Position numbers and translations under genes: made by a program
Shown: one piece after another, positions 16,108 through 48,045 of the stretch
How positions within the stretch are numbered: the stretch's first letter is position 1
Layout: the number at the start of each line of letters is the position of its first letter
Notes under the pieces: model-generated
What the model saw: the letters and a program-made list of their open reading frames with translations, nothing else
What the model was told of the DNA's origin: nothing
Databases searched by the model: none
Source: an uncultured Bdellovibrionales bacterium
GTDB lineage: Bacteria > Bdellovibrionota > Bdellovibrionia > Bdellovibrionales > JAMPXM01
NCBI GenBank assembly: GCA_937927435.1
Contig: CALBDW010000092.1
Coordinates: 7 to 64,006 of the forward strand
DNA length: 64,000 bases
Reading direction: 5' to 3'

Positions 16108-16905
16108 ATGAAGAAGACGTTCGCGATCGTTCTCGCCGTTCTTTTTGTTGCGACGAGCGCCTGGGCCGAGTTTAAAGTTCCCCAGCTGACGGGCCCCGTG
16201 GTGGACCAGGCGGGAATTTTGAGCCGCCGCACGGAACGGGTATTGGAGTCCGCGCTTCGCGCACTCAAGGACAAAAGCGGAACTCAAATCACGGTTTTGA
16301 CCGTTCCGTCTCTTGAGGGGCTTTCGATCGAAGAGGCGAGCATTAAGGTCGTCGACAAATGGCAACTTGGAAAGCGCGGTGAGGATCGCGGAGTCTTGTT
16401 CATGGTCGCGCCTCAAGAACGCCGCGTCCGAATTGAAGTCGGGCGAGGTCTCGAGGGCGATCTCACCGACGTCGACAGCAAGCGGATTATTGAAGAGAGT
16501 GTACTGCCGCTTTTCCGCGCGGGCGATTACGATAGCGGTGTCATCGTCGGCGTTTTTCAGATCGCGAAGAAAACCGATCCCGAGGTGGATCTTACGCCTT
16601 ACCTTGAAGGGAAGAAACGCCGAGTTCCCACAACAAGCGACCCCACTGATGACGATGACGACGATATTTCGACTCTCGTTTGGTTCGTCATTCTTTTTAT
16701 TGCTTATGTCGTCCTTGTGCGCGGGCCAGGTCGTCGCAAATTTTATCGTCTTGGCAAAACGATGGGACGGTGGCCTGACGACTTCGGCGGTCCTTGGGGC
16801 GGCGGTGGTTTCGGAGGTGGTTTTGGTGGCGGCGGCTCCGGCGGCGGTCGTTGGGGCGGTGGCGGAGGCGGCTTCGCTGGCGGCGGTGCTTCTGGAGGTT
16901 GGTGA
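16108..16905 (+). CDS. TPM-domain protein (YgcG-like) with TM segment and Gly-rich tail
   Basis: Signal peptide, TPM core VVDQAGILS...TQITVLTV...RGVLFMVAPQERRVRIEVGRGLEG, acidic run DDDDDD, a TM segment, and a C-terminal GGGFGGGFGGGGSGGG tail. Confidence 0.8.
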   Translation: MKKTFAIVLAVLFVATSAWAEFKVPQLTGPVVDQAGILSRRTERVLESALRALKDKSGTQITVLTVPSLEGLSIEEASIKVVDKWQLGKRGEDRGVLFMVAPQERRVRIEVGRGLEGDLTDVDSKRIIEESVLPLFRAGDYDSGVIVGVFQIAKKTDPEVDLTPYLEGKKRRVPTTSDPTDDDDDDISTLVWFVILFIAYVVLVRGPGRRKFYRLGKTMGRWPDDFGGPWGGGGFGGGFGGGGSGGGRWGGGGGGFAGGGASGGW

Positions 16906-22777: not shown

Positions 22778-22810
22778 AAAAAAGGGAGGGTTTCAAACCC
22801 TCCCTTTATG
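22778..22810. terminator. bidirectional intrinsic-terminator-like hairpin between nrdJ and the acyl-CoA dehydrogenase gene
   Basis: GGGAGGGTTTCAAACCCTCCC (22784-22804) forms a perfect GC-rich stem. It is flanked by an A-run (5') and TTTAT (3'). Confidence 0.7.
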
Positions 22811-22854
22811 ATTCTAAAGGCCTGTAATGACTTTTGTTTTTCGAGCTATTCCGG

Positions 22855-22882
22855 TCATCCCCACGATTGTGAGCCAGTTTTA
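22855..22882 (-). repeat. singleton arm of the AAACTGGCTCAC-N4-GTGGKGATGA repeat family
   Basis: The plus strand reads TCATCCCCACGATTGTGAGCCAGTTTTA, the reverse complement of TAAAACTGGCTCAC-AATC-GTGGGGATGA. It ends 7 nt from the stop of the minus-strand gene 22890-24101. Confidence 0.85.
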
Positions 22883-22889
22883 GCGTGAA

Positions 22890-24101
22890 TTACGCGTCGA
22901 TGGCACCTGGGTTCTTCGCCAAATCTCGCGTGATGTTTTTCTGGTGCGCTTCGAGAGTTCCACCGCCGATTTCAAGCAGCTTCGCGTCCCGCCACAAACG
23001 CTCGACCACGTATTCGCCGACGTAACCGTAGCCACCGAGAACTTGGATGGCGCGATCGGCGATATTTTTGGCTGCCGTCGTCGAAACGAGTTTCACGCCG
23101 TCGGAATCCAGACGGTTGCCGGAAGAATGGAGATCCAGGCGGCGGGCCGTATCGTAAACGTAAGTACGGCACGCGCGGTATTCGGCGTAGCTTTCAGCGA
23201 TATGGCGCTGGATTTGGCCGAAGTGCGAGATCGGCTTACCAAAGGCGTGGCGCTCGTTCGCGTAACGATTCATCACTTCCAGCGAGCGGCGGGCGATGCC
23301 AAGAGCCATAGCGGCCAGAGTCAGGCGTTCGATCTCGAGGTTGCGCATCATATGGTGGACGGACTCTCCGAGCTCACCGATGAGGTTTGATTTCGGAACG
23401 CGGCAATTTGTGAAGACAAGCTCCGCTGTGTTGGAGGCGCGCATTCCGGTTTTATCTTTGATTTTTTGGCCGACTTCGTAACCCGGCATCCCTTTTTCGA
23501 TGAGGAATGTCGAAATTTGCGGTTTGCCGTTTTTCTCGCCGGTTTTTGCGTACAACCAAACGTAGTCGGCTGGCGTGCCTTCGTCGTCGAGGCAGCCGTT
23601 CGTGATCCACATTTTGCGGCCGTTTATAACGAATCCGTCGCCAGCGGCTTCGGCCGTCGTTTCAAGGCCCAAAACGTCGGTACCGACATTCGGTTCGGAC
23701 ATCGCCATGCAGCCTATTTTTTCGCCGCTGCAGACGCCCGGCAAAATGCGCCGTTTTTGTTCCTCGCTACCGTTAACGGCGAGGTTGTTCACGAAAAGCA
23801 TGCTGTGCGCAAGATAAGCCAAGCAGAAGCCGGGGTCGGAGGATGAGATTTCCTCGTGGACGATCACGGCGGCCACGGCGTCTTGACCGGCTCCGCCGTA
23901 CTCTTCGGGGACGGTGATGCCGAGAAGGCCGAGTTCACCGAGCTTCCTGAAAAGAGGAAGGTTGAAAACCTCGCGGCGGTCATGTTCCAGAGCTTGCGGC
24001 TCGACTTCGGACTGGACGAACTCCCTCACGGTTTCACGAATCATCTTATGTTCGGGGGTGGGATTAAAAAGGTCGAAGTTCCGCCAACTCGATTCGCTCA
24101 T
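22890..24101 (-). CDS. acyl-CoA dehydrogenase (isovaleryl-CoA dehydrogenase-like)
   Basis: 403 aa. CMAMSEPNVGTDV, WITNG and C-terminal EIGGGTLEAHQKNITRDL motifs of the ACAD family. Confidence 0.9.
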   Translation of the reverse strand: MSESSWRNFDLFNPTPEHKMIRETVREFVQSEVEPQALEHDRREVFNLPLFRKLGELGLLGITVPEEYGGAGQDAVAAVIVHEEISSSDPGFCLAYLAHSMLFVNNLAVNGSEEQKRRILPGVCSGEKIGCMAMSEPNVGTDVLGLETTAEAAGDGFVINGRKMWITNGCLDDEGTPADYVWLYAKTGEKNGKPQISTFLIEKGMPGYEVGQKIKDKTGMRASNTAELVFTNCRVPKSNLIGELGESVHHMMRNLEIERLTLAAMALGIARRSLEVMNRYANERHAFGKPISHFGQIQRHIAESYAEYRACRTYVYDTARRLDLHSSGNRLDSDGVKLVSTTAAKNIADRAIQVLGGYGYVGEYVVERLWRDAKLLEIGGGTLEAHQKNITRDLAKNPGAIDA

Positions 24102-30625: not shown

Positions 30626-31087
30626 ATGTCGCGCAAGAAAGCTAAGCCGGGAATCAATCGCAAAGCCGCGATGGTTGCGACTTCGGATGTCGAGAAGAAG
30701 TACGGAACAGTTGCGATCGAACAAAACAAGCTCGAGCGCTTTGAAAACCGCACGCAAGTGCGCCGCTACACGATCGAGTTCACATGTCCGGAGTTCACGT
30801 GCCTGTGCCCGCGCAGTGGCTTCCCGGATTTCGCGACCATTCGGATCAAATACGTTCCGGATAAGTATTGCGTGGAACTCAAATCGTTGAAGCTTTACAT
30901 CAACAGCTTCCGCGACAAGCACGTCTTCCACGAGGACGTGACGAACATCATCTTGCAGGACCTGGTCGACCTCTTGGATCCTTGGGAAATCACGGTCGTT
31001 GGCGATTTCAATGTGCGCGGTAACATTCATACCGTCGTGACCGCGACTCACACGAAAGAGAAACAGGGGCGTTCGAAACGCGCATGA
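30626..31087 (+). CDS. queF: NADPH-dependent 7-cyano-7-deazaguanine reductase (type I QueF)
   Basis: 153 aa. EFTCLCPRSGFPDFATIRIKYVPDKYCVELKSLKLYINSFRDKHVFHE (QueF motif plus catalytic Cys). The stop TGA at 31085-31087 overlaps the first bases of a repeat arm. Confidence 0.9.
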   Translation: MSRKKAKPGINRKAAMVATSDVEKKYGTVAIEQNKLERFENRTQVRRYTIEFTCPEFTCLCPRSGFPDFATIRIKYVPDKYCVELKSLKLYINSFRDKHVFHEDVTNIILQDLVDLLDPWEITVVGDFNVRGNIHTVVTATHTKEKQGRSKRA

Positions 31088-31180
31088 ACTGGCTCACTTC
31101 CGTGGTGACGGTGCTAACTAGTCGAATTAACTGGATTTTTATGGCTATTGAGATGTCACCACGATTGTGAGCCAGTTTTA
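31086..31180. repeat. 95-bp head-to-head doublet of the repeat family, between convergent genes
   Basis: GAACTGGCTCAC-TTCC-GTGGTGACG (31086-31110), then a 45-bp unique centre, then TCACCAC-GATT-GTGAGCCAGTTTTA (31156-31180). The arms are reverse complements of each other. The queF stop and the minus-strand gene stop (complement of 31178-31180) both lie in the arms. Confidence 0.9.
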
Positions 31181-32785
31181 AAACTTCTCGATGAACGCCG
31201 ACTTCATCTGTCGTTTGGCGCCTGGAAGTTCGAAATCCCAGTCCGGGGTCGGAGCGGGAGTCAGGCGTCCCGCTTTCGATTGCACAAGCCACTTTTTCAA
31301 CCGCTTTGCGAAATCTTCGACCGTCCATCCTTCGAAGTTCAAAGCGAAAAGAATGCGGCCGCCCGGGCGAGTGACGGTATTGAGTTGGTTCAAGAGCGAC
31401 TCAAAATCCTTGTCGATGCGGAACACGCCGCCGGTTTTCGAGCGGCTGAAAGAGGGCGGGTCACAGATGACGAGATCGAACTGCTGTCCTTTTTTCGCTG
31501 CCCATGCGAGGTATTCGCGAGAATCCATCACCCGGAACTCGTGGTTTTCGGGGGAAAGCGAATTGAGGCTAAAGTTGGTTTTGCTCCATTCAATAAACGA
31601 CCGGCTCACGTCGACCGACACGACGCGCTTGGCTCCACCGAGTGCGGCCGCCACACTGAATCCGCCCGTGTAGGAGAACAGATTGAGGACGTCTTTGTCG
31701 CGGGCGTGCTCTTTCACCCATAGGCGGTTTTGTCTTTGATCAAGGAAAAGTCCCGCTGAAAGTCCCGTATCGGTACGGAATTCAAAGCGAACGCCGTTTT
31801 CTTCTCCGAGCCAGCGAGTCTCAAAACAGGTGTGGGGGCCGCGTATGATTTTCTCTTCATTCGGAGAGCGCCCTCGATTCCCTCGAATTTGTACGTACCA
31901 ATTCTTCCAGCCGAGTTCTTCGCAAAGCTGGTGAAGAGCGCTCCATTCTTCGTCATTGGGCTCCCTTTCGGCAAACCATGAGAATGAAATCACCGGTCCC
32001 AACTGGTCGGCGCGTAACGGATCTCCTTCGGAATGAATCCAGCGCAGAGTCCGAGCTGCGTCGTCGCCGTTTGGAGAGCTGAGAGCTGCCCACGAGCGGA
32101 TAAGACGTTCGCGCCGGTCGACGGCGCTGAGCCAGCGGCTCAAAGGCGGAGAGCGGGTGAACTCCCGCCGTCGAAACCAGCGCGGTTCTGGAAAAGATTG
32201 TGAGAACCGTTCTCCGTCGATTTCGAAGGAAAGAAAATGACTGTGCAGGCACAGGCTAGGATAGCTTGTTCCGCCGTAAAGCGTGTCGCCGAGGATCGGA
32301 ATTCCGCTCTTTGCTGCATGCAAGCGGATTTGGTGGGTCCGTCCGGTCGACGGGCGTGCCTCCCAAAGGGTCAGCCCATGGCTTTCTTCAAGCCTAAGAA
32401 ACTTCGTGTGCGCGTTTGCCGGCCGCTCCGCGGTCGGCTGCGAAGACACGATTCCGCCCGGACCGCGATCAATATGAGATTCGATCTCGAATTCTGACCG
32501 CGAACTCGGACGGTCGGTGAGGAGAAGATAACGTTTTTCGACTCTCCTCGATGAAAACGCCTCCCGCAGTTTTTCGGCGGCTTCCTTGCTTCGCGCGAGA
32601 GAAAGAACGCCTGTCGTTTCCCGGTCCAATCGATGCGCGACCCGAAGGTCAAGGCCGAAACGGGCGGAAAGGTACTCCACGAAACCGTCGTTCGGATCAA
32701 TCAATGAATCAGACGTCGGTTTCTGATTAAGTGACGAGTGCGTCGTCACTCCCGCCGGTTTATCGACGAAAACAAAATCCGCCAC
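31178..32785 (-). CDS. fusion protein: RluA-family pseudouridine synthase + RlmI-like class I SAM-dependent RNA methyltransferase
   Basis: N-terminal half: VDKPAGVTTHS, HRLDRETTGVL, KRYLLL, GRTHQIRLH. C-terminal half: LNLFSYTGGFSVAAALGG, VSVDVS, VICDPPSFSRSK. The tracked ORF start (33175) overlaps fur in another frame, so the start is set at the GTG at 32785, just downstream of the fur stop. Confidence 0.75.
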   Translation of the reverse strand: MADFVFVDKPAGVTTHSSLNQKPTSDSLIDPNDGFVEYLSARFGLDLRVAHRLDRETTGVLSLARSKEAAEKLREAFSSRRVEKRYLLLTDRPSSRSEFEIESHIDRGPGGIVSSQPTAERPANAHTKFLRLEESHGLTLWEARPSTGRTHQIRLHAAKSGIPILGDTLYGGTSYPSLCLHSHFLSFEIDGERFSQSFPEPRWFRRREFTRSPPLSRWLSAVDRRERLIRSWAALSSPNGDDAARTLRWIHSEGDPLRADQLGPVISFSWFAEREPNDEEWSALHQLCEELGWKNWYVQIRGNRGRSPNEEKIIRGPHTCFETRWLGEENGVRFEFRTDTGLSAGLFLDQRQNRLWVKEHARDKDVLNLFSYTGGFSVAAALGGAKRVVSVDVSRSFIEWSKTNFSLNSLSPENHEFRVMDSREYLAWAAKKGQQFDLVICDPPSFSRSKTGGVFRIDKDFESLLNQLNTVTRPGGRILFALNFEGWTVEDFAKRLKKWLVQSKAGRLTPAPTPDWDFELPGAKRQMKSAFIEKF

Positions 32786-32798
32786 GGCTTCGGAATTC

Positions 32799-33338
32799 TC
32801 AATTTTTAGCCGGCGTCGACGAGCCGGTTTTCTTGGCACGTTCTTGTTTTTGGCAATCGGGACAAATGCCGTAAAGTTCGAGCAGGTGGTGCGTGAGTTG
32901 GAATCCGAATTCTTGGGCCACTTTCTCCTGAAGTCGTTCGATTTCGTAGTTTTCGAATTCGACGATTTTATGGCAGTGCACGCAAGTGAGGTGGTCGTGG
33001 TGGTCCTTTTCGGCCCACTCATAACGGGCCGGCATTCCGCCCATTCGAACTTCGGTGACGTAATTGTGTTCCGAGAGCGTGCGCAAGAAACGATAAACTG
33101 TCGCGAAGCCGATCGCTGGGTTACGGGCGGCGACAGCTTCGTAAACGTCTTGTGCCGTAAAGTGATTGGACCCATTCCGAATGATCTCGAGGATGAGCAT
33201 TCGCTGTTCGGTCACCTTGAGTCCCAGATCGCGAATGATCTTTTTATTGGGGACTTTTTCTCCGCGGCTCGAGGCGCGCGAGAGAAGTTCTTGAGACGAG
33301 CTAACGGGCAAACTGGATACGGCTGTACGGAAATTCAT
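32799..33338 (-). CDS. fur: Fur-family metalloregulator
   Basis: LKVTEQRMLILEIIR..HFTAQDVY..ATVYRFLRTL winged helix. HHDHLTCVHCHKIVEF and CPDC metal sites. Confidence 0.8.
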   Translation of the reverse strand: MNFRTAVSSLPVSSSQELLSRASSRGEKVPNKKIIRDLGLKVTEQRMLILEIIRNGSNHFTAQDVYEAVAARNPAIGFATVYRFLRTLSEHNYVTEVRMGGMPARYEWAEKDHHDHLTCVHCHKIVEFENYEIERLQEKVAQEFGFQLTHHLLELYGICPDCQKQERAKKTGSSTPAKN

Positions 33339-33397: not shown

Positions 33398-33450
33398 AGA
33401 CTTAGGTGAGGTCAGATAATTCGGTAAGTATTGGAAATATCTAAGTTTTT

Positions 33451-33544
33451 AAACTTGCTCACGAGCGTGGTGGTCGTGTTAGGCCTTCGGAAGTTCCTCG
33501 CTCTCGGTTCTTGAAGCGTGGCACCAATAAAGTGATCCAGTTTG
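33451..33544. repeat. 94-bp head-to-head doublet of the repeat family (diverged copy)
   Basis: AAACTTGCTCAC-GAGC-GTGGTGGTCG (33451-33476), then a 44-bp unique centre, then GCACCAA-TAAA-GTGATCCAGTTTG (33521-33544). Lies in the divergent fur / 33755 intergenic region. Confidence 0.75.
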
Positions 33545-39172: not shown

Positions 39173-41048
39173 TCACGAGTCTTCGTTCCGCGGTCGCTAT
39201 TCAAAAGAGGTTTTTGAAAGCCTCTACTTCTCATATCGTCCAGTTCTCGTCCGCATCGTTTTTCTGGTTATTTGCGGCTTTTTGGGGAGACTTTTACTTC
39301 TCGCGAATACCAACATCATCGGCATTTGGGTGGACACTTACTGTGCCTCGATGGTCGGCGGCGTGCTCACCCAACAACAGTGCCGGCCGGTTCCGGAGTT
39401 TTTTAGAGGATTTGATAACGCTCAATTTTTAAAACTTTTGGCGCTCATTACGGCTTGCGGGTTTGTATTGACGGCGTTCTTTCGAATCGGTTTCTCGCGC
39501 CTATCCGCGGGTGCCGTGAGCCGTCTTTATGACGAAGTGACCCTTCGGACGTCGAGGCTTCCGATCCGGTTCTTCGACGTAAACCCGGTTGGGAGGGTCG
39601 TCACCCGGTTTTCCAGCGACTACGGCAACGTTTTCCGTCTGTTCGGCGGGCCTTTGGCGGAATTTTTCGCGATCGTTTTCGATCTCATTTGCATGGTGGC
39701 GCTCATCACGGTGGCGAGCCCGTTCTATTTGCCCATCATCGTGGTCATCGGTATCGCCAATTGCGCGGTTTATCGGCTCAACCGCGACAGACTCCGACGC
39801 GAGCGTCGCGAGCTTTCGGCGATTCGCTCGCCCTCGATTGCGCATTTCGCGGAGACTACGCAAGGAGCGAGCACGATTCGCGTGTTTGGGCGGCAGGCAA
39901 CTTTTCTCGGGAGATTCTCGAAGCTGAATTCGAGTTATCTGCGGCAAAGGGTACGCACGAACGTTGAGATCTTGAAGTTCTCTCTTCAGATGGGAACGCT
40001 CACGGCGCTTTTGCTCCTTGCCACCGGATTGATCGGACTTGCACTTGCCCGCCATGGGCTTGTCAGCGTCGGCTCCATCGGTGTCGCGTTTGCGTTCATC
40101 GTTCTTTCGGGCGTGAGCATTCAGATGTTTTTCGAATGGTTTGCGCAGTTCGAAGAGGCGATGACGGGCGTTGAGCGCTTGAACGATTATTTGCGCCGTG
40201 ATTTGGAGCCGGGCGCGAAACTGCCGTCGACAAGGCAGTTCCCGACGCATCACCCGGTTTACATGCCGGCCGAAGAGGAGGAACTCAAACGTCGCCGTCT
40301 CGTCGAGGGTCGAAGCGCGGGCGTACTGATTGAAGACCTTTGGTTCCGTTATTCGCCCGATACTCCGCCGGTCTTAAAGAATGTTTCGTTGTGCATCCGG
40401 CCAGGTGAGAAAATCGGCGTCGTCGGGCGGACCGGAAGCGGCAAAACGAGTCTCGTTCAGGCGTTGCTGTATCTCTATCCGATTGAACGCGGCCGTATCT
40501 TGATCGACGGGCAAGCGCCGGAGGTCGGACAGGAAGGTGAGGACCAAAACCGTGTTGATCTCAATCTGTTCCGGCGTAGTATCGCTTTGATCTCGCAAGA
40601 GCCGACGCTCTTCCGGGGCACTCTCCGCGAAAACCTGGATCTCATGGGGCGCCACGATGACGACCGCTTGATAGATGCCCTGAGAAGAGTCGGGCTACTT
40701 GAGTGGTTTAACGCTTTGCCTGACGGTCTTGAGTCGCAGATCGAAGAGCGGGGCCGTAACCTTTCCAGCGGTGAAAAGCAGCTTCTCTGTATGGCTCGCT
40801 GCCTTTTGCAGGATGCGCCCATCGTCGTGATGGACGAGGCCACGAGTTCGATCGATCCACAGTCGGAAGAAATACTGGTACGGGCGACCGGCGAGTTCTT
40901 TGCCGACCGAACGCAAATCATCATCGCGCACCGGCTTTCGACTTTGACCGATTGTGACCGCGTACTATGGCTTCATAAGGGCGAAGTGCGCATGTTCGAC
41001 AAGCCGGAGAAGGTGTTGCCGGTGTTTCAAAGGACGCGGCTCGCATAA
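39147..41048 (+). CDS. ABC exporter, fused permease/ATPase (probable heterodimer partner)
   Basis: Start at the ATG at 39147 (RBS GGAGGGG), overlapping the upstream gene by 26 nt. Walker A GRTGSGKTS, signature LSSGEKQLLCMAR, Walker B VVMDEATSSID. The stop TAA at 41046-41048 overlaps a repeat arm. Confidence 0.9.
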   Translation: MSKPNRFLDHESSFRGRYSKEVFESLYFSYRPVLVRIVFLVICGFLGRLLLLANTNIIGIWVDTYCASMVGGVLTQQQCRPVPEFFRGFDNAQFLKLLALITACGFVLTAFFRIGFSRLSAGAVSRLYDEVTLRTSRLPIRFFDVNPVGRVVTRFSSDYGNVFRLFGGPLAEFFAIVFDLICMVALITVASPFYLPIIVVIGIANCAVYRLNRDRLRRERRELSAIRSPSIAHFAETTQGASTIRVFGRQATFLGRFSKLNSSYLRQRVRTNVEILKFSLQMGTLTALLLLATGLIGLALARHGLVSVGSIGVAFAFIVLSGVSIQMFFEWFAQFEEAMTGVERLNDYLRRDLEPGAKLPSTRQFPTHHPVYMPAEEEELKRRRLVEGRSAGVLIEDLWFRYSPDTPPVLKNVSLCIRPGEKIGVVGRTGSGKTSLVQALLYLYPIERGRILIDGQAPEVGQEGEDQNRVDLNLFRRSIALISQEPTLFRGTLRENLDLMGRHDDDRLIDALRRVGLLEWFNALPDGLESQIEERGRNLSSGEKQLLCMARCLLQDAPIVVMDEATSSIDPQSEEILVRATGEFFADRTQIIIAHRLSTLTDCDRVLWLHKGEVRMFDKPEKVLPVFQRTRLA

Positions 41049-41702
41049 ACTGGCTCACTATTGTGGTGATGAAATGTCAAAACGCTTAAGCGGGCGTAGG
41101 ATAACTACTGCCCAGAGGAAGACAAATCGTTGAAGTCGAAGGGGCGGAAGGCTCGCTCATTAAAAAACCGCTAATAGCAGAGAGGAAACGGCAGTTACGC
41201 GGTTTTCTTTTCCAAAGACTCGTTATGAGACTGCATATAGACCGCAAGATGCGCCGCCAGGAATTCAGCGGCTTCGATTCTAAGAGTACTTCCATTTTCT
41301 TTCGGACTTGAGCAGCAAGAAAGAGAAGCTTTCGTGCGACGGTAGTGCGGCTGATATTGAGGAGAATCGTCGCTCTTCGCTGAGAAACTCCGGATGAGAG
41401 GAGCTTTCTTAAAGGCTCGTTCTTATGTCTCTTCTTTTGCTTATAACTAGGATGCAGGATCGCATAGGAGAATCCTCTCCGGCAGCGCAAACAGTGAAGC
41501 CGCTGCACGATACGCGCATCCGACTTTCGACGGTATCGACCGTTGCGTACTCCTTACGGCCGGGAGTTGGATGTCGATAGATGTCTTATGCAATAGGGAC
41601 AGTCGGGCAGCACCCGCAGGTCCAAAAGCAAGAGTCTGGCCAGCTTTTCCCTCATCGTTTACGAATCGCCTCAACTTATCCCCACGAAAGTGGGCCAGTT
41701 TG
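41047..41702. mobile_element. 656-bp unit bounded by the repeat-family arms and carrying a decayed zinc-ribbon/HTH gene (IS-like, probably a deletion derivative)
   Basis: Left arm AAACTGGCTCAC-TATT-GTGGTGATGA (41047-41072). Right arm CTTATCCCCAC-GAAA-GTGGGCCAGTTTG (41675-41702) is its imperfect reverse complement. One minus-strand gene fills the interior. Confidence 0.7.
41086..41655 (-). pseudogene. IS1-InsA-like zinc-ribbon + HTH protein gene with in-frame TAA; no DDE domain present
   Basis: Own translation: MREKLARLLLLDLRVLPDCPYCIRHLSTSNSRP*GVRNGRYRRKSDARIVQRLHCLRCRRGFSY...LLSSGVSQRRATILLNISRTTVARKL. This has the same architecture as IS1 InsA (CPxC..VRNG..QRxxCxxCR, then NGVxxRxxARIxxxxxxTxxRxL). 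The TAA is the complement of 41554-41556. Confidence 0.6.
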
Positions 41703-41818: not shown

Positions 41819-43444
41819 ATGAAAATAAGGCTAGTTAGCTGGATTTTGTTCTTTAGCTTTTGTGCGATCCTGTCGTTCAACCGTGGTTTCGCTTTCGAAC
41901 GGATCCCGGGCGAATACATCGTTAAATACAAGGACAACCCTGTCATCGCCATTGCTTCTATGCGGTCGATTCCAGGCGTAATGGTTCTTTCTCACAACGA
42001 GTTCGGCCGGCTCTTGAAAGTACGTGTGAACCTCGAGGACGAGATCACAGTGCTCGACAAAATCTATAACGACCCGAATGTCGAGTACGTGGTTGCGAAC
42101 GCGAAAGTGAAGTCGTTCCTTTATTCATCCGCTGAAACGCGCGCGAATCTCCGCGAACAATGGGCTCTTACGAAAGTCCGCGCGAGAGAGGCATGGCAAC
42201 GGGCCGGTAACCGAGGCAATAAAAACATCGTTGTTGCGGTGATCGATACGGGCGTTGACTCGAATCATGAGAGCCTTCGTCCTAACATGATCGCCGGCTA
42301 TAACTTCAAAGATAACACACCGGATGCCAGCGATAAGACGAGCCCGTTCGGTAACCCCGGGCACGGCACGCACTGCGCGGGTGTTGTAGGGGCGACCGGT
42401 TTGATCGACGGTGGTGTTATCGGAATCAGCCCTGACATCTCGATCATGCCGCTAAAGTTCCTCGACGAAAGAGGACAAGGTGACCTTTACGGCGGTGTTC
42501 GCGCGATCGACTACGCGATCGAAAAAGGTGCTCACATTATTTCGGCAAGCTGGGGAGCGACGATGAGTCGTCAGCAAGCGATGCCCATCATTGAAGCTGT
42601 CAAGCGGGCAGACGATGCAGGCATTCCGTTCATTGCGGCTGCTGCCAATGATGGTCGCAATAACGATACGACTGAGGTTTATCCGACCAACGCCGGTTTG
42701 CCGAACATGATTTCCGTGGCGGCTAGCGGGCCGAATGACGAAAAACCGTCGTGGTCGAACTACGGTAGAAAGAATGTGCACCTCGCTGCTCCCGGCGTTG
42801 ATATCATGAGCACGCTGCCGGGTAATAAGTATGGTAATCTTTCCGGCACGTCGATGGCGACTCCGCTCGTCTCCGGTCTGGTTGCTTTCTTGAAAGCTCA
42901 AGATCCGTCGCTCACGGGAGCCGAAGCTCGCGCGCTCCTGCAGCTGACGGGCGCGAAAGCTCAAGTGACGACCGCATGCAACTGCCGTGTCGACGCTTAT
43001 GCGGCCGTTGACGCGCTCTTAAGCAAGAAGATGTTCATCGTTCCGGCCGCGGCCACGATCAAGCCGGGTGAGACCTTGCAGTTCTCGACGAAGTTCGGTG
43101 TTGCGCCGTTTACTTTTAGCGTTTCCAATCCCTCGGTTGGAAGTATCACGAACGACGGTCTCTTCACGGCTTCCGGTGTCGGCACGACGACCGTTACGGT
43201 TCGGGACTCAAGCGGACAAGTCTCGACCTCGCTTGATATCAATGTCGCCAACGACGGTGGTAGCGGCGGTGGCGGCGGTGGTGGCGGTGGCGGTGGTGGC
43301 GGCGGCGGCGGCTTCCCGTTCCCCTTCCCGCCGGGTGACGGTGGCGGCGGCGGTGGCGGAGGAGGCGAATGTCCGCTTGGCGATCAGCAGCTTTGCGATA
43401 TCCTCTGCCAAATTTCGCCGAATCTACCGATCTGTAATAAGTAA
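41819..43444 (+). CDS. secreted subtilisin-like S8 serine peptidase with Ig-like domain, poly-Gly tracts and Cys-rich tail
   Basis: Start at the ATG at 41819 (RBS GAGGGGG) with signal peptide MKIRLVSWILFFSFCAILSF. Catalytic triad contexts VAVIDTGVD, HGTHCAG and SGTSMATP. Big_2-like segment IKPGETLQFS..VTVRDSSGQ. Then G18, FPFPFPPGD, G10 and ECPLGDQQLCDILCQISPNLPICNK. Confidence 0.85.
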   Translation: MKIRLVSWILFFSFCAILSFNRGFAFERIPGEYIVKYKDNPVIAIASMRSIPGVMVLSHNEFGRLLKVRVNLEDEITVLDKIYNDPNVEYVVANAKVKSFLYSSAETRANLREQWALTKVRAREAWQRAGNRGNKNIVVAVIDTGVDSNHESLRPNMIAGYNFKDNTPDASDKTSPFGNPGHGTHCAGVVGATGLIDGGVIGISPDISIMPLKFLDERGQGDLYGGVRAIDYAIEKGAHIISASWGATMSRQQAMPIIEAVKRADDAGIPFIAAAANDGRNNDTTEVYPTNAGLPNMISVAASGPNDEKPSWSNYGRKNVHLAAPGVDIMSTLPGNKYGNLSGTSMATPLVSGLVAFLKAQDPSLTGAEARALLQLTGAKAQVTTACNCRVDAYAAVDALLSKKMFIVPAAATIKPGETLQFSTKFGVAPFTFSVSNPSVGSITNDGLFTASGVGTTTVTVRDSSGQVSTSLDINVANDGGSGGGGGGGGGGGGGGGGFPFPFPPGDGGGGGGGGGECPLGDQQLCDILCQISPNLPICNK

Positions 43445-43465
43445 GGTACCGTTCCTACGGCCCCA

Positions 43466-43503
43466 AAAGCTCGGGAGGTTTCTCCCGGGCTTTTTTATTT
43501 TTA
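43466..43503 (+). terminator. intrinsic terminator after the S8 peptidase gene
   Basis: AAAGCTCGGGAG-GTTT-CTCCCGGGCTTT stem-loop followed by TTTTTTATTTTT. Confidence 0.7.
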
Positions 43504-43530
43504 ACTGGCTTACTGTCGTGGTGATGGGAA
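43501..43530 (+). repeat. singleton arm of the repeat family
   Basis: TTAACTGGCTTAC-TGTC-GTGGTGATGGGAA. Its complement encodes the last 7 codons and the stop (..CFPSPRQ*) of the minus-strand gene. Confidence 0.8.
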
Positions 43531-44183
43531 GCAGTCGGGGGCATACATATAGCTGTGATAAGCCTTCCAAAACGAATCCGCGCACGGCCCCATTATCGAT
43601 CCCGTATCATCGTGACATAAATCGTGATCGAAGCATTCTTGGGTATACTGGTTCTTGCGCCATTGCATGAATTGATAACACCCGACTCCGCAACGGCCTC
43701 GGCAGCGCGTGGGCGGATCGCCGACGATTGATGATGAAATGACCGGCTGTCCGTCCACGAAATAAGTTCCGGTGTGGTGTTGGCCGATCAACTGACAGAT
43801 CATCGTGTATTTATTGTTTCGGTCGCGGAGCAGAGTTTTCTCGGTCACTTCATCGAACTCGGGAACGGCTTCGTTAGGCTCGACGAAGTTCGCAATGAAA
43901 TCGAGAAGGATAAATGTCCGTGGATCGAGCGAATCGTTTCCGGAGTTTGAGAGGGTGTCGCGAACAACGTTTTGATCATCTTCACTAAGGAATGGCGGTT
44001 AAGTGTCATCGTCACGACGTCGAAGCGTTCTGAGTGAACGCAAATTTCCGCAGTTAAAGATTTTGAGCGCCAATCTGCTCGGCAATTCTTCTCGCTGAAA
44101 AGGGGGCTGTAATCGAGGGCGACTGAGAATCGTGGGAAAAAGAAAAGAGCCAGGATGAAGGCGAATGTCTGCATGGTAGACAT
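43510..44183 (-). pseudogene. secreted Cys-rich protein with phospholipase-A2-like C-x-x-H-D-x-C motif, frameshifted
   Basis: ORF 43845-44183 (signal peptide MSTMQTFAFILALFFFPRFSVA...) and ORF 43510-43848 are one gene. The downstream frame is open upstream to 43998 and reads PPFLSEDDQNVVRDTLSNSGNDSLDPRTFILLDFIANFVEPNEAVPEFDEV... Adding one G to the GG at 43997-43998 joins them (..TMTLNPPFLSEDD..). C-terminal motif: CRGRCGVGCYQF...ECFDHDLCHDD. Confidence 0.5.
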
Positions 44184-44229: not shown

Positions 44230-44328
44230 AAACTGGGCTCACTCTAATGGTGAAAGATTAAAAGGAGCTGAATAGATAGGCATTCCGAAGCCAATTTTTG
44301 TCATCCCCACAATAGTGAGCCAGTTTAA
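44230..44328. repeat. 99-bp head-to-head doublet of the repeat family
   Basis: AAACTGGGCTCAC-TCTA-ATGGTGAAAG (44230-44256, with one extra G), then a 44-bp unique centre, then TCATCCCCAC-AATA-GTGAGCCAGTTTAA (44301-44328). Confidence 0.85.
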
Positions 44329-44488: not shown

Positions 44489-47113
44489 ATGCGTGTTGTG
44501 CGCCAAATTCGAGCAAGTGTGGCGAAATTTTTCCAGTATTCCCAGTACCGGAAGCTTTTCGGTTTCTTAGGTGCTGGCGTAGTGGCTTCCGGTTTACTGG
44601 CGGCGTGCGGCTCGTTCTTTGACGACCGTTCTCAACCTAAAGTCGCCCGGCTGGATGAAACTTCCCTTTCGTGCATGAAAGAGGTGCCGAATTCCATCGA
44701 GAATTGGACCCAGGGGCACGTCACGGATGATATCGGCGCGTCGATCGATTGTTTAACGGCAGCATTCGACAAGTTTCTTACGCGTGTCCGTGGTGAAGGA
44801 GAAGAGGGGTGGCACGCGGAAGAGATCGCTCAGTTCATTTCCGGCGAGTTTGATCTCGCTCCCGAGGAGCTTCAGGAAAAAGTAAATGCCGCTTTGACGT
44901 TGAAGCAGGTCCTGTTTGGTGGACGTGAGACGACGTTGAAGCGCGCCGAGGTGGTTTACTTGCGCGAGCTGCTGCGCAAGTTGAAGCCGTGGCTTGCGGA
45001 ATTGGCGCCGCTGATGCCCGTCATCACTTTGAAAGCTGAGTACGGGACCATTGTGGAAGCCGAAGAAGCGGCTCGTCTCCTCAACATTGTAGCGAATGAG
45101 CTCGCGGCGCAAATCAAACTTAGTCGCTCGTTCATCGGCGTGAGCTTGGTCGAAAAAGCCCCGGCTGAGTATTCGTTTGAAAAGATCGCCGATGCGTTGG
45201 CTGTTTTCGGGGTCGATCGTGACATTCTCGATTCCTGGCTGCCTCTTGCCAAGAGCGCCAAGGTTATCCTTGCTGGAGGAGAGCCTGATCGTATTGAGCG
45301 TTCGCGCTTGCCTCGGTTGGTTTTGGCGGGCGGCGAAGTTTGGGGAATCTTTCTCCGTGCCCGCTACGGTTTAATCGAGAGCGATGACCTGTTCGGCCGG
45401 GATCTCGAGGCGCTGGCGGCGGCGGTATACGACGGGCTCGAGGAGCTTGGGCGCTCCATTCAAGCCCAATCCCCAGAGCCGATCATTCGTGTTGAGAAAT
45501 TGGAAGCACTCATTGAGGCTCTTGGTGACAAAGGTCTCATTCCGCTTGGCTTGAAAGCTTCGACGGTTAAGGGGCTATTACCGGCTGTTTTGACCAAGTT
45601 CCTCCATGGGAATTGGAACCCAGACCGCGAGCTTAAGAAGCAGGGATTTGATTTTGATCACTTGAATAAGCTCCGCCTCGCTTTCGACGACTGGCTTGAA
45701 GGACAGCGGTCCCTCAACCGGGTTTATGAAAACCGGCCGGATGCGACCTCGGGATTCGACGCTTTTTCTCGGGCATGGCACGAGGAAACCGCCGATCCGG
45801 CCGTCGCGAATCGCCGTTTCCGCATCGAGCTGAGTGAGCTTCTTTCGAACGCGTATGCGTTCACTACCGATGAGGAATTGCGTCCGTTTATCTTCAAGAA
45901 TTCAATCTACGCGGGGGTCAAGAAGAGCGACCTGGACCGATTGAATATCGCGCGCGCGATCGGGGGATTGATCATTTACGGTTATCCTTACGACAGTGGG
46001 GCGGCGAGAAGCGCAGCAGGTCTTACGGAGCGTGAGGTCGTCGAATTCGTTCTCGATATCCGCCAACTCGGTATCGACCTCGGCATCACAGACGTCCGCA
46101 GCATGAAGGCCGGGCCTCGTACCTATATGGAAGCGAGCCTCTTCACGTCGCTCGCGAAAGGGCAGGACAAAGTCGGGTTACATCAAGCGGTGGAGTGGTT
46201 CGCGATCGCGTATGGATCTCAGCAGGCGTCGACCCGCTATTATCAGTCTCTACTGGGCGAATGCGGTACCGGTCAATATGACAGCCTCGGTCGCGAAAAA
46301 CTTGTTCCGTCTTGCTTCCGAAAGGCGTTCGTTCGTGACTTTGATCGAATCTTCGCGAATCTTCCGGATTTTCTCGCTTGGGTTCATTCGACGGGCGATA
46401 GGCAGATGCCCGAAAAACTGCTGGAGCAGATCGAGCTCGCGACGCGTTCAGATGGGATATCGGAAAGACCTCTTGAGCCCGCTGATGCGCTTTCGATGTT
46501 CCCTGTTGTTCACTACGCGGAAAATCTTGTGCGGGTGCATGACCGCGATGGCAACGGCATTCTCGATGAGAAAGAGGTGAACGATTACTTCCCGATTATC
46601 GCGCCGTTTATCCGTCTCATGGCGAACGGTAAAGCCGAGAGCGTGAGTACGCAGAAGCAGATTTATCAGTACATACTCAATCATGGGGAACCGCCGGATC
46701 CCTCGTCGTGGTGGACCTTCATTCAGATCGGCTGGGATAAGATCAAGAACCAATTCCAGAAAAAAGAGGCTACCCGATACGACATTCTACGGATTATCGC
46801 AGGTTTGAACTCGTACGGCCGTCGTGTCCGTTACCAAAATATCCGCCAATATTTCGACGCGAATATTCTGACCCTGGAAAAATCAATGGCGGCAGGCAAA
46901 AGAGATGTCGCAGAGAAATTGACCGATCTTTTCCAATGCTTGCCGGAAGCGGTCAACGACTTCGCGGACTTAATGAAACGGAATGTCCGTTACATTATGG
47001 CGCGGCAGAAATTGGGCCATGCCAACTACATCACGGCCGACATGTTCACAAAGAGGATTCAAACTCTGCTGGCGAACGATCCGAGGTTCGCGGCTCGTTG
47101 CTTACCTTTCTAA
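44489..47113 (+). CDS. 874-aa lipoprotein of unknown function with one canonical EF-hand loop
   Basis: Lipobox LLAAC. EF-hand DRDGNGILDEKE (D-x-D-x-N-G-x-L-x-x-x-E). No other family recognised. The stop TAA at 47111-47113 overlaps a degenerate repeat arm. Confidence 0.6.
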   Translation: MRVVRQIRASVAKFFQYSQYRKLFGFLGAGVVASGLLAACGSFFDDRSQPKVARLDETSLSCMKEVPNSIENWTQGHVTDDIGASIDCLTAAFDKFLTRVRGEGEEGWHAEEIAQFISGEFDLAPEELQEKVNAALTLKQVLFGGRETTLKRAEVVYLRELLRKLKPWLAELAPLMPVITLKAEYGTIVEAEEAARLLNIVANELAAQIKLSRSFIGVSLVEKAPAEYSFEKIADALAVFGVDRDILDSWLPLAKSAKVILAGGEPDRIERSRLPRLVLAGGEVWGIFLRARYGLIESDDLFGRDLEALAAAVYDGLEELGRSIQAQSPEPIIRVEKLEALIEALGDKGLIPLGLKASTVKGLLPAVLTKFLHGNWNPDRELKKQGFDFDHLNKLRLAFDDWLEGQRSLNRVYENRPDATSGFDAFSRAWHEETADPAVANRRFRIELSELLSNAYAFTTDEELRPFIFKNSIYAGVKKSDLDRLNIARAIGGLIIYGYPYDSGAARSAAGLTEREVVEFVLDIRQLGIDLGITDVRSMKAGPRTYMEASLFTSLAKGQDKVGLHQAVEWFAIAYGSQQASTRYYQSLLGECGTGQYDSLGREKLVPSCFRKAFVRDFDRIFANLPDFLAWVHSTGDRQMPEKLLEQIELATRSDGISERPLEPADALSMFPVVHYAENLVRVHDRDGNGILDEKEVNDYFPIIAPFIRLMANGKAESVSTQKQIYQYILNHGEPPDPSSWWTFIQIGWDKIKNQFQKKEATRYDILRIIAGLNSYGRRVRYQNIRQYFDANILTLEKSMAAGKRDVAEKLTDLFQCLPEAVNDFADLMKRNVRYIMARQKLGHANYITADMFTKRIQTLLANDPRFAARCLPF

Positions 47114-47196
47114 AACGGGCTCATGAGATTGAGGAGGGCTGAAACCGCAGCCGTTTCAGCCCATCCGCGCCATCACCACGGAAGTGAGCCAGTTCG
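47111..47196. repeat. 86-bp doublet of the repeat family with degenerate left arm and internal hairpin
   Basis: The left arm TAAAACGGGCTCAT-GAGA-TTGAGGAGGG (47111-47138) matches 12/14 positions in the first block and 5/10 in the second. The right arm is CATCACCAC-GGAA-GTGAGCCAGTTCG (47171-47196). The centre holds a perfect 10-bp stem, GGGCTGAAAC/GTTTCAGCCC (47136-47162). Confidence 0.6.
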
Positions 47197-47202
47197 TACG
47201 GG

Positions 47203-48045
47203 TTAAACGGGGCGTTCCGTCAGGCCCAGGGCCATGCGCTCATACTCTTCAAGCGGCTTCCGCACGTTCGCCATCGAGCCGAGGGCTCCTCCCGACACGG
47301 CGGCCGCTCCTCCGATGAGCAGGGTGAGGAAGATCGTCCAGCCGGCGGCTTGCAGGCCTTTGGCGGCGGCTTCACGGGCTTGCACGAGGGCTTGGTCGAC
47401 GCGTTCTCTGAGGGTGGCGATCCGGCGATCCGCTTCCGCACGTGAAATGCCAGCTTGGTAAGCGAGATAAGTTTTGGCGTTTTCAACGTCTCCGCGGATC
47501 AACCGCGAAGCCAAACCGGTTGTCACCGTTTGCGGATCGGACTTGAGTTTCAGGTCGCCGATGGCTCCCTCAATCGCCGCGTTGACGGCTGGAATTTCAA
47601 CAGCTCGTTGCGCTCCGGTCGCGGCCACTTGACCGACGCCTCGTGCGGTCGCGAACACGGTATGTCCGAGCCACCCGACGGCTGTCGCCATTTGATAGAA
47701 GAGTATCCCGAAAAAGAGGGACGCGATCACGAGCCCTTGCGCGGAGCCGATGCGGCCCGTGTGCGTTTTCGAGATTCGGGCTGCGAAATACGAGCCGGCG
47801 AAAAGAGCGATGAGGCTTGAGCACAAAAGCCAGAGTCCCGTGAAGACGGTCGCTCCTTGCGCGCTAGCGCCGTCGGCAAGACCGATTCCGCCGAAGGCTA
47901 GGCCGAGTGAAAGCATCAGAGCGAAGGTGAGGAGCGCAACCAGAAGGCCAGCGACGATCGATCGCCAACTGACCAAAGGATGATACCGGGTCAACTCCGT
48001 TTCTATCGGCGTTGAATGTGTGAGAGTTTGGTTCTTCGTTGCCAT
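47203..48045 (-). CDS. membrane protein (about 4 TM) with C-terminal helical domain, function unknown
   Basis: Hydrophobic segments VAGLLVALLTFALMLSLGLAF, LWLLCSSLIALFAG, LVIASLFFGILF and a C-terminal TIFLTLLIGGAAAV. No recognisable family. Confidence 0.5.
   Translation of the reverse strand: MATKNQTLTHSTPIETELTRYHPLVSWRSIVAGLLVALLTFALMLSLGLAFGGIGLADGASAQGATVFTGLWLLCSSLIALFAGSYFAARISKTHTGRIGSAQGLVIASLFFGILFYQMATAVGWLGHTVFATARGVGQVAATGAQRAVEIPAVNAAIEGAIGDLKLKSDPQTVTTGLASRLIRGDVENAKTYLAYQAGISRAEADRRIATLRERVDQALVQAREAAAKGLQAAGWTIFLTLLIGGAAAVSGGALGSMANVRKPLEEYERMALGLTERPV

Follow-up and report, generated by a model that had tools for sequence, protein, structure and literature searches.

Tips of an IS1-like insertion sequence and its miniature derivatives frequently coincide with stop codons in a Bdellovibrionales genome

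[quoted passage not shown] In Coxiella burnetii, all the functional genes affected by QMITE1 and QMITE2 are hit at the 3′ end, with overlaps of 1–50 bp; the host proteins are little extended or truncated, enhC carries a MITE-encoded tail, and the reason for the 3′ preference is called unknown by the authors (PMC5896051). MITEAba12 and ISAba12 of Acinetobacter produce 9-bp target-site duplications (TSDs) at AT-rich sites, and have internal stops that truncate or fuse host open reading frames (ORFs) (PMC6382973). A 2024 review contains no discussion of stop codons (PMC10969869). Here we describe a family of repeat arms in a 64,000-nt stretch of DNA from an uncultured Bdellovibrionales bacterium (contig CALBDW010000092.1, positions 7–64,006; the whole of this stretch is referred to below as the window). 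Each arm is a terminal inverted repeat (TIR) of an IS1-like DDE insertion sequence (IS), whose transposase has an InsA-type N-terminus, or of a MITE derived from it; the arms are not repetitive extragenic palindromic (REP) elements. The tips of these elements fall on stop codons far above chance, mostly without any change to the protein encoded by the host gene. The locus is therefore a new example of a known pattern, with unusually clean evidence.

The TIRs are 26–28 nt long, with the consensus Y-A-AACTGGCTCAC-NNNN-GTGGKGATGA, and the complementarity from arm to arm is 84–96%. The 11-nt core AACTGGCTCAC occurs 10 times in the window with no more than one mismatch, where 0.5 occurrences are expected. 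A search with an nhmmer arm profile located 11 arms, and a twelfth, degenerate arm at 47114 was found by eye; all 12 are confined to 22.8–47.2 kb. A metagenome scan yielded 66 loci, 58 of which were assigned to the same organism or to close relatives. These 58 loci and the window, with duplicates removed, provide a set of 87 non-redundant arms, whose comparison defines the element ends as YAAACTGGCTCAC. Genome contigs from GTDB were also scanned with the arm pattern. This gave 53 matches, nearly all of them chance matches within coding sequence, and among the scanned genomes related doublets were found only in one Bdellovibrionales metagenome-assembled genome (L019, L054). The source species is accordingly not one of the GTDB representatives.

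An A occupies position −1 in 76 of the 87 arms, and in 68 of them position −2 holds a C or a T. The terminal dinucleotide made up of these two positions (for example 31085–31086 and 41046–41047) is TA in 30 arms, CA in 30 and AA in 13, and is followed by 11 nt that are nearly invariant. The positions further out (−6 to −3) are unconserved across the 87 arms, and the sequence cgca, which the initial annotation had noted as a shared feature of two junctions, is thus treated as a coincidence.

Doublets of inverted arms measure 85–97 bp in the window and 91–95 bp in most of the metagenomic copies, and there is no ORF inside them. They can be sorted into subfamilies. Types A and B are both 93 bp long, with the loops AATC/TTCC and TATC/TTTA respectively, while the long type has the loops CTTC/TTTC and is represented by copies of 373, 580, 1117 and 1138 bp. 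Copies of the long type frequently sit at contig breaks, as other multicopy elements do. The centre of the doublets, which had appeared variable, is conserved within each subfamily, in types A and B over the full 93 bp, and the MITE halves are homologous to the end of the IS along approximately 55 nt. The doublets are therefore MITEs in the usual sense: small, non-coding elements with TIRs and TSDs, present as dispersed copies of several subfamilies, together with a parent element that has the same ends. The 93-bp MITEs would be internally deleted derivatives of the IS, presumably mobilised in trans by its transposase. The four nucleotides between CAC and GTG (positions +11 to +14, for example 31098–31101) are specific to the subfamily and to the arm. 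They lie in a potential mini-hairpin of 4–5 bp and may be a feature recognised by the transposase.

The precise position of the tip was derived from the TSDs. When the tip is set 2 nt outside AACTGG, five perfect 9-bp repeats and one repeat matching at 8 of 9 positions are found among the 36 complete elements, against a chance expectation of about 1e-4; no TSDs were found in these elements at any other offset or length. This result bears on the comparison with REP elements made in the initial annotation. Inverted extragenic doublets of about 90 bp that form hairpins at the 3′ ends of genes, with a small CAC-N4-GTG hairpin of variable loop in each arm, could in principle be REP or REPIN elements moved by a RAYT (Y1 HUH) transposase. 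However, 9-bp TSDs are present, the IS bounded by these arms codes for a DDE-fold transposase that has a zinc finger and a helix-turn-helix (HTH), the arms are self-palindromic over no more than 4–5 bp, and no RAYT gene is found beside any arm in the loci examined, although no exhaustive search of the genome for RAYT genes was made. An origin as REP elements is thus very improbable, and the TSDs and the ends shared with a DDE-transposase IS identify the elements as MITEs. A scan of the whole window against Rfam at the gathering threshold found no known RNA family.

The copy of the IS at L096:5839–6955 is 1117 bp long, has the same TIRs, and carries a transposase ORF of 293–310 aa (L096:5980–6912, minus strand). 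A Pfam search with the transposase gave nothing significant, including no match to IS1. The NCBIfam model transpos_IS1 (NF033558) is matched over profile positions 8–137 of 199 with an E-value of 7.9e-12, but with a score of 45.5 bits, compared to a curated cut-off of 100. Alignment of the family to E. coli InsA using hhalign gave a probability of 93.7% and an E-value of 2e-7 over 77 columns, and no match to InsB was obtained in the same way. The N-terminus is thus an IS1 InsA-like zinc finger and HTH. For the remainder we turn to an AlphaFold model (pLDDT 83), in which the secondary structure elements follow the order β1-β2-β3-α-β4-α-β5, and whose best PDB matches using Foldseek are the ISCth4 transposase, retroviral integrases, TnsB, Mos1 and MuA; the predicted structure is an RNase-H-like DDE fold. 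The motifs FDDxETxEH, SD, GQGELK and NH..A..R...RL.R.TW.TTK are invariant in the family (P0241–P0360), and candidates for the third catalytic residue are E250, or N263/H264 (P0241 numbering), next to the putative catalytic residues D138/D139 and D217. More than 5000 homologues were found at E<1e-3, mostly on contigs of 1–2 kb. None has a precomputed Pfam domain, and in their sources they are labelled as transposases of Bdellovibrionota or Bdellovibrionales. Proteins encoded beside the elements are likewise labelled Bdellovibrionota or Pseudobdellovibrionaceae. The transposase family is abundant and unclassified, and only its N-terminus ties it to IS1.

The distance of the elements from stop codons was measured as the gap between the stop of the gene and the first base of the element, for those arms whose outer side faces the 3′ end of a gene. 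There are 47 such arms. The gap is −27 to +8 in 29 of them and 37–584 in the other 18, and there are none in the range 9–36. At gaps of up to 8, the stop shares bases with the 9-bp target or with the element tip. Within this near class the gaps are −3 (eight arms), −2 (five), −1 (one), 0 (two), 3 (two), 6 (four), 7 (two) and 8 (two), with three read-throughs. Arms facing the start of a gene have gaps of 23–892, with a median of about 120. The association of arms with stops proposed in the initial annotation is therefore well above chance: it is found for 29 of 89 pooled arms (33%), compared to about 3.7% for uniform insertion into the MITE-free spacers of the same loci (P ~1e-19), and in the window alone 6 of the 12 arms have a stop at −3 to +8 nt from the outer tip (same null; P ~2e-6). 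There is a second mode of gaps, formed by six arms at 37–84 nt, which abut the hairpin and T-tract of a clear intrinsic terminator. Precise insertion at stops and at terminators, which had been suggested as one of two possibilities, thus does occur, the second mode lying right after the T-tracts.

In a compact genome, intergenic repeats will often touch stop codons, and in MITE-free convergent pairs the median distance between the two stops is indeed only 23 nt. However, this compaction is already contained in the null of uniform insertion on the same spacers, which falls far short of the observed fraction. The placement within spacers is also biased, since nine elements are adjacent to a stop where 2.3 are expected given that the spacer is hit (P 2e-5), and the intact TSDs show that the elements were adjacent to the stop at the time of insertion. 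We consider it extremely improbable that compaction alone accounts for the pattern.

The copies in the window, and the genes and terminator that they touch, are as follows.
22800–22881: decayed type B MITE, with an intact TIR at 22852–22881 (minus strand).
30626–31087, plus strand: queF (Pfam QueF), ending in TGA at 31085–31087.
31085–31179: MITE of 95 bp, a diverged copy of type A, recognised from its homology with MITEs of type A and with the end of the IS; left TIR approximately 31085–31112, right TIR approximately 31152–31179.
31178–32785, minus strand: gene for a fusion of an RluA pseudouridine synthase and a SAM methyltransferase; its stop is the complement of 31178–31180.
33450–33544: degenerate MITE doublet lying upstream of fur, with no stop codon nearby.
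41046–41702: decayed IS copy of 657 bp, with TIRs at 41046–41073 and 41675–41702.
43465–43502, plus strand: intrinsic terminator of the S8 peptidase gene, with a 13-bp stem and a T-tract; one of the six in the second mode, with the solo arm beginning right behind the T-tract.
43501–43528, plus strand: solo TIR.
43510–43848, minus strand: Cys-rich DUF8213-like gene; its stop is the complement of 43510–43512, inside the solo arm.
44231–44327: MITE doublet of 97 bp with a 1-nt insertion in its left arm, located in the divergent promoter region that separates the Cys-rich gene from the 874-aa gene.
47112–47196: MITE doublet of 85 bp between the convergent genes for the 874-aa lipoprotein and a membrane protein.

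Seven stop codons had been placed in or beside the arms in the initial annotation, and all of the coordinates check. The TGA of queF overlaps the AACTGG that begins at 31087, and the stop of the RluA–methyltransferase gene abuts the inverted arm ending at 31177, so that the MITE occupies the entire spacer between these two convergent genes. The TAA codons of the ABC exporter (41046–41048) and of the 874-aa lipoprotein (47111–47113) are also confirmed. The stop of the acyl-CoA dehydrogenase gene (22890–22892) lies 8 nt outside the tip of the MITE at 22800–22881, and that of the membrane-protein gene (47203–47205) lies 6 nt from the tip of the doublet. The stop of the Cys-rich gene is inside the arm as claimed, but this gene, unlike the others, enters the arm from the inner side. 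TSDs were looked for at the insertions at 31085, 33450, 41046 and 47112, and none were found; we suspect that these are old insertions, or that the TSDs were lost by recombination between copies.

How do the tips come to lie on stops? We hypothesise that the placement arises from an A/T target preference of the IS/MITE family combined with purifying selection and with in-frame stops at the element tip, which is the best explanation available and in our view a fairly probable one. The transposase would prefer A/T at both of the staggered-cut positions of its 9-bp target, and in a compact genome of 54% G+C such sites would come chiefly from stop codons and from the T-tracts of terminators. Purifying selection would then purge the insertions that harm coding sequence, terminator hairpins or promoters, and the survivors would form one narrow group at the stop and another immediately beyond the T-tract. 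At the exact stop, a tip reading TAA would restore the stop at once, or else 5–8 residues would be added before a TGA, and the insertion would hence be tolerated. The component observations are described below, and we infer that they are the cause of the stop pattern.

A target preference of this kind would resemble that of IS1, which favours A/T-rich targets. A weight matrix was trained only on arms that are not next to stops. It has 76–80% A/T at positions −11/−10 and is T-rich (T/W) at −5 to −3. Applied to MITE-free genes, it scores gaps of −1, 0, 6, 7 and 8 at 2–3 times background, with gaps of 1–5 and 9–10 scoring worse, and the favoured gaps mirror those observed. The tip itself reads, in the relevant frame, YAA ACT GGC TCA CNN NNG TGG KGA TGA, which provides a TAA if Y is T, a TGA at +19 if K is T, and a TGA at +22. 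At least 13 genes read into the tip, all of them in this stop-bearing frame, and they either stop immediately or acquire 5–8 extra residues. It was considered whether the T of a TAA tip is an adaptation to stop codons. This was rejected: away from genes there are 21 TA and 23 CA tips, and since TA is equally common there, the T/C polymorphism is intrinsic and not an adaptation to the site.

Several points weigh against this explanation. The measured preference yields only 2–3-fold of the approximately 6–9-fold enrichment, and we infer selection as the source of the remainder; the set of insertions contains no de novo, and thus unselected, events. The frame that would yield a 10-aa tail has no observed insertions, a hint of greater precision than selection alone would call for. 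The terminal dinucleotide varies even among the type A copies that are verified by TSDs (TA/AA, AT/TA, AA/CA). The TSD is kept by only 6 of the 36 complete elements, and by none of the eight copies in which the TAA of the tip serves as the stop, so that the history of these eight is derived from orthologues, and in one case only, the ABC exporter. Finally, the sample is biased to near-consensus arms, the metagenome contigs have about 4x coverage, a few related strains or species are pooled, and genes were called using a simple and crude codon-usage caller.

Some of the same observations could be explained by dedicated targeting, in which the stop trinucleotide or the terminator structure is recognised with nucleotide precision by the transposase, with or without a host factor, and selection is minor; on this view the family would be a "safe-site" integrator found in nature. 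This would account for the hard void at 9–36 nt and for the codon-exact junctions (the eight at −3 and the five at −2), as well as for the fact that four of the five independent TTTC ends of the IS abut the last sense codon. The single frame of all the read-ins also fits, but the same bias is expected from selection against long C-terminal extensions. Similarly, four of the six insertions verified by TSDs touch a stop, but others are in 5′ regions (L093, L106). About two-thirds of the arms are off stops, many of them in 5′ regions where the flanks show the same motif, which is a weak A/T preference and not TRA. On balance dedicated targeting appears unlikely. We hold to be equally doubtful the further idea that the transposase reads gene "punctuation" (the A/T steps of stops, and T-tracts), perhaps via DNA shape, and that the tip evolved as a stop cassette. 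If it were true, the element would be a self-limiting "safe-harbour" transposon, harmless at the last sense codon even within operons (L091), and the hairpin embedded at the stop would tune 3′-end stability or the termination of translation.

The other possibility suggested in the initial annotation was that insertion has replaced the native C-termini of the host proteins and now supplies their stop codons. Replacement turns out to be a minority outcome. A stop or a new tail is supplied by the element in, for example, QueF, the Cys-rich protein and the metagenomic loci L091/L087, whereas the C-termini of the ABC exporter and the RluA–methyltransferase are still the native ones. The clearest case is the ABC exporter. 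Three orthologues with 78–87% identity and the same synteny (ABC-ABC-S8 peptidase) have empty sites (L126, L127, L129); their proteins finish on the identical residue (...TRLA), with a native TGA as the stop. In the window the stop is the first three bases of the element, TAA, and the protein is unchanged. For the RluA–methyltransferase, the T of the stop comes from the flank, and AA is the terminal dinucleotide of the element. The protein ends 5–7 residues past a conserved MKS motif, as do its distant homologues, and its length is thus normal.

QueF is different. Its TGA consists of the terminal TG of the element and the first A of AACTGG, and compared with its nearest relatives (95% and 88% identity), whose ends read ...HTK(xx), the protein has 7 additional residues. 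A CAG codon in queF aligns with the TAG/TAA stop of the relatives, and the following 8 nt can still be aligned. The native stop has therefore been lost, and translation now ends at the TGA of the junction. The downstream neighbour of queF is different in each of the close relatives (L123:2941–2950; L124:1648–1835), and the doublet at 31085–31179 thus marks a synteny breakpoint, which together with the missing TSD is consistent with recombination between copies. As regards these neighbours, one relative has a convergent gene of 107 aa at a distance of 5 nt, and another has a tandem gene behind a hairpin.

The Cys-rich protein ends ...APDCFPSPRQ*, compared to ...APNCFE* in the orthologue, the last five codons and the stop being derived from the TIR. 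In relatives (L126:6120–6745), greA lies between the S8 peptidase gene and the DUF8213-like gene, convergent with the latter and 6 nt away from it. In the window (43445–43530) greA is missing and the solo TIR lies exactly at that junction, which suggests that greA was lost by an element-mediated deletion. No arms were found in the approximately 29 kb of relatives' loci that were examined. The Cys-rich gene in the window is split into two ORFs of 112 aa in different frames, both on the minus strand (43845–44183, with a signal peptide, and 43510–43848). Its codon usage is atypical, and it may be a frameshifted pseudogene or the result of an assembly error.

Metagenomic copies that retain their TSD show the outcome of insertion more directly. 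In L091 the TSD TTCACGAAA is formed by the last three codons of the gene, and read-through of a CA tip gives the end ...FTK-QTGSLSWG*, leaving the native TAA, an AGGAGG and the ATG of the next gene beyond the element. It is worth adding that this MITE (L091:6020–6158) sits within an operon, where it separates the last sense codon of the upstream gene from its stop, and that translational coupling may be affected. In L078 the stop was cut in two by the insertion (TA|A) and is regenerated by the tip; in L057 and L098 the AA of the TAA stop forms the beginning of the TSD. Several metagenomic genes carry arm-encoded tails of 5–8 residues. Most host proteins are unchanged, and a few have an arm-encoded tail or use the junction as a back-up stop.

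A hairpin had also been suggested in the initial annotation, and the folding energies show that the doublets do form very stable ones. For well-conserved doublets the energy is −34 to −47 kcal/mol and the z-score −5 to −8, and the doublet at 31085–31179 folds at −42/−36 kcal/mol with a z-score of about −7; the degenerate doublet at 47112–47196 is weaker (−34 to −38 kcal/mol, z approximately −3.2). The stem of 31085–31179 is followed by UUUUAAAA on the plus strand or by UUCAUG on the minus strand, without a proper T-tract, and a terminator scan lists no intrinsic terminator at the doublets. Judging from the sequence, a transcribed doublet would form a long hairpin that starts at the stop codon, and an effect on the 3′ ends of mRNA is plausible.

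This raises the question of whether the copies at gene ends have been kept by positive selection as useful hairpins, acting as 3′ mRNA stabilisers, as barriers between convergent genes or as substitutes for terminators. There are precedents in REP/BIME and ERIC elements, and the stability of hairpins that begin at the stop is in keeping with such a role. At queF/RluA and at 47112–47196 the doublet is the sole strong structure between convergent genes, where no canonical terminator was found, and an identical queF doublet occurs in three independent samples, the same copy being present in three independent metagenome contigs. Against this, the stems lack a following T-tract, many copies are in promoter regions, and the copies in the window are diverged or degenerate in both interiors and arms, which argues against a strong constraint. 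Such a role seems to us unlikely to be the reason for the pattern.

A few details of the remaining copies may be noted. The partner arm of the MITE at 22800–22881 has been eroded into a terminator hairpin (22780–22810). The doublet at 33450–33544 lies in a divergent region upstream of fur (32799–33311, minus strand) and could affect the fur promoter. The IS copy at 41046–41702, between the ABC exporter and S8 peptidase genes, retains a remnant zinc-finger/HTH transposase ORF (41086–41508, minus strand). Its two TIRs are of different subtypes, and on its right side about 19 nt that are found in the orthologues (stop and spacer) are missing. A reading of this copy as two unrelated arms was rejected in favour of a single decayed IS copy. 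The arms at 43503 (plus) and 44325 (minus) were considered as the ends of an element with an 823-bp cargo. This was rejected because the gene between them is native and found in relatives; 44231–44327 is a complete doublet, and 43501–43528 is solo. The left arm of 47112–47196 is the degenerate one missed by nhmmer, with 4–5 mismatches, and the doublet has an internal 10-bp hairpin. Gly-rich GGN coding repeats are found in two genes, at 16785–16898 and, within the C-terminal portion of the S8 peptidase gene, at 43246–43367; they have no relation to the arms.

The family is a documented case of a MITE and its IS colonising a compact genome via stop codons and the T-tracts of terminators, and the empty sites and TSDs reveal the different fates of the host proteins, which may be unchanged, extended or re-tailed. 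This offers an explanation for the 3′-end preference that was left open in the Coxiella study (PMC5896051). The elements mark synteny breakpoints, and they draw attention to a Bdellovibrionota transposase family that is very large and has no Pfam model. For annotation there is also the warning that, in these genomes, a transposon may be the source of stops and of short C-terminal tails.

In comparison with known systems, the family resembles IS1 in its InsA-like zinc finger and HTH, its 9-bp (8/9-bp) duplication, its length of about 1.1 kb, where IS1-family elements measure about 0.75–1.2 kb, and its A/T-rich targets. It differs from IS1 in having a single ORF without an obvious frameshift, a catalytic part that is not recognisably InsB, no Pfam match for the transposase, and ends that read YAAACTGG, whereas the terminal sequence of IS1 is GGT.... 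With REP/BIME/REPIN and ERIC elements it shares an extragenic, hairpin-forming nature and a frequent position between convergent genes just past their stops, and those elements can stabilise the upstream mRNA; however, REP elements produce no TSD and are mobilised by RAYT (HUH) transposases, whereas the present elements are derivatives of a DDE transposon. The likeness to MITEAba12 is closer, both being short and non-coding, with TIRs shared with a parent IS, a preference for AT-rich sites, and 9-bp TSDs kept by a fraction of the copies. The sequence of the TIRs and the family of the transposase are unrelated, though, and the host here is a member of the Bdellovibrionota. Here, moreover, the tip contains nested in-frame stops, and a third of the arms are on stop codons. 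QMITE2 differs in having REP-like GTAG motifs and in being a target of IS1111, and no parent IS with the same ends was described for the QMITEs. For the family described here, by comparison, the distribution of gaps, the reconstructions from TSDs and the empty orthologous sites provide a mechanistic account.

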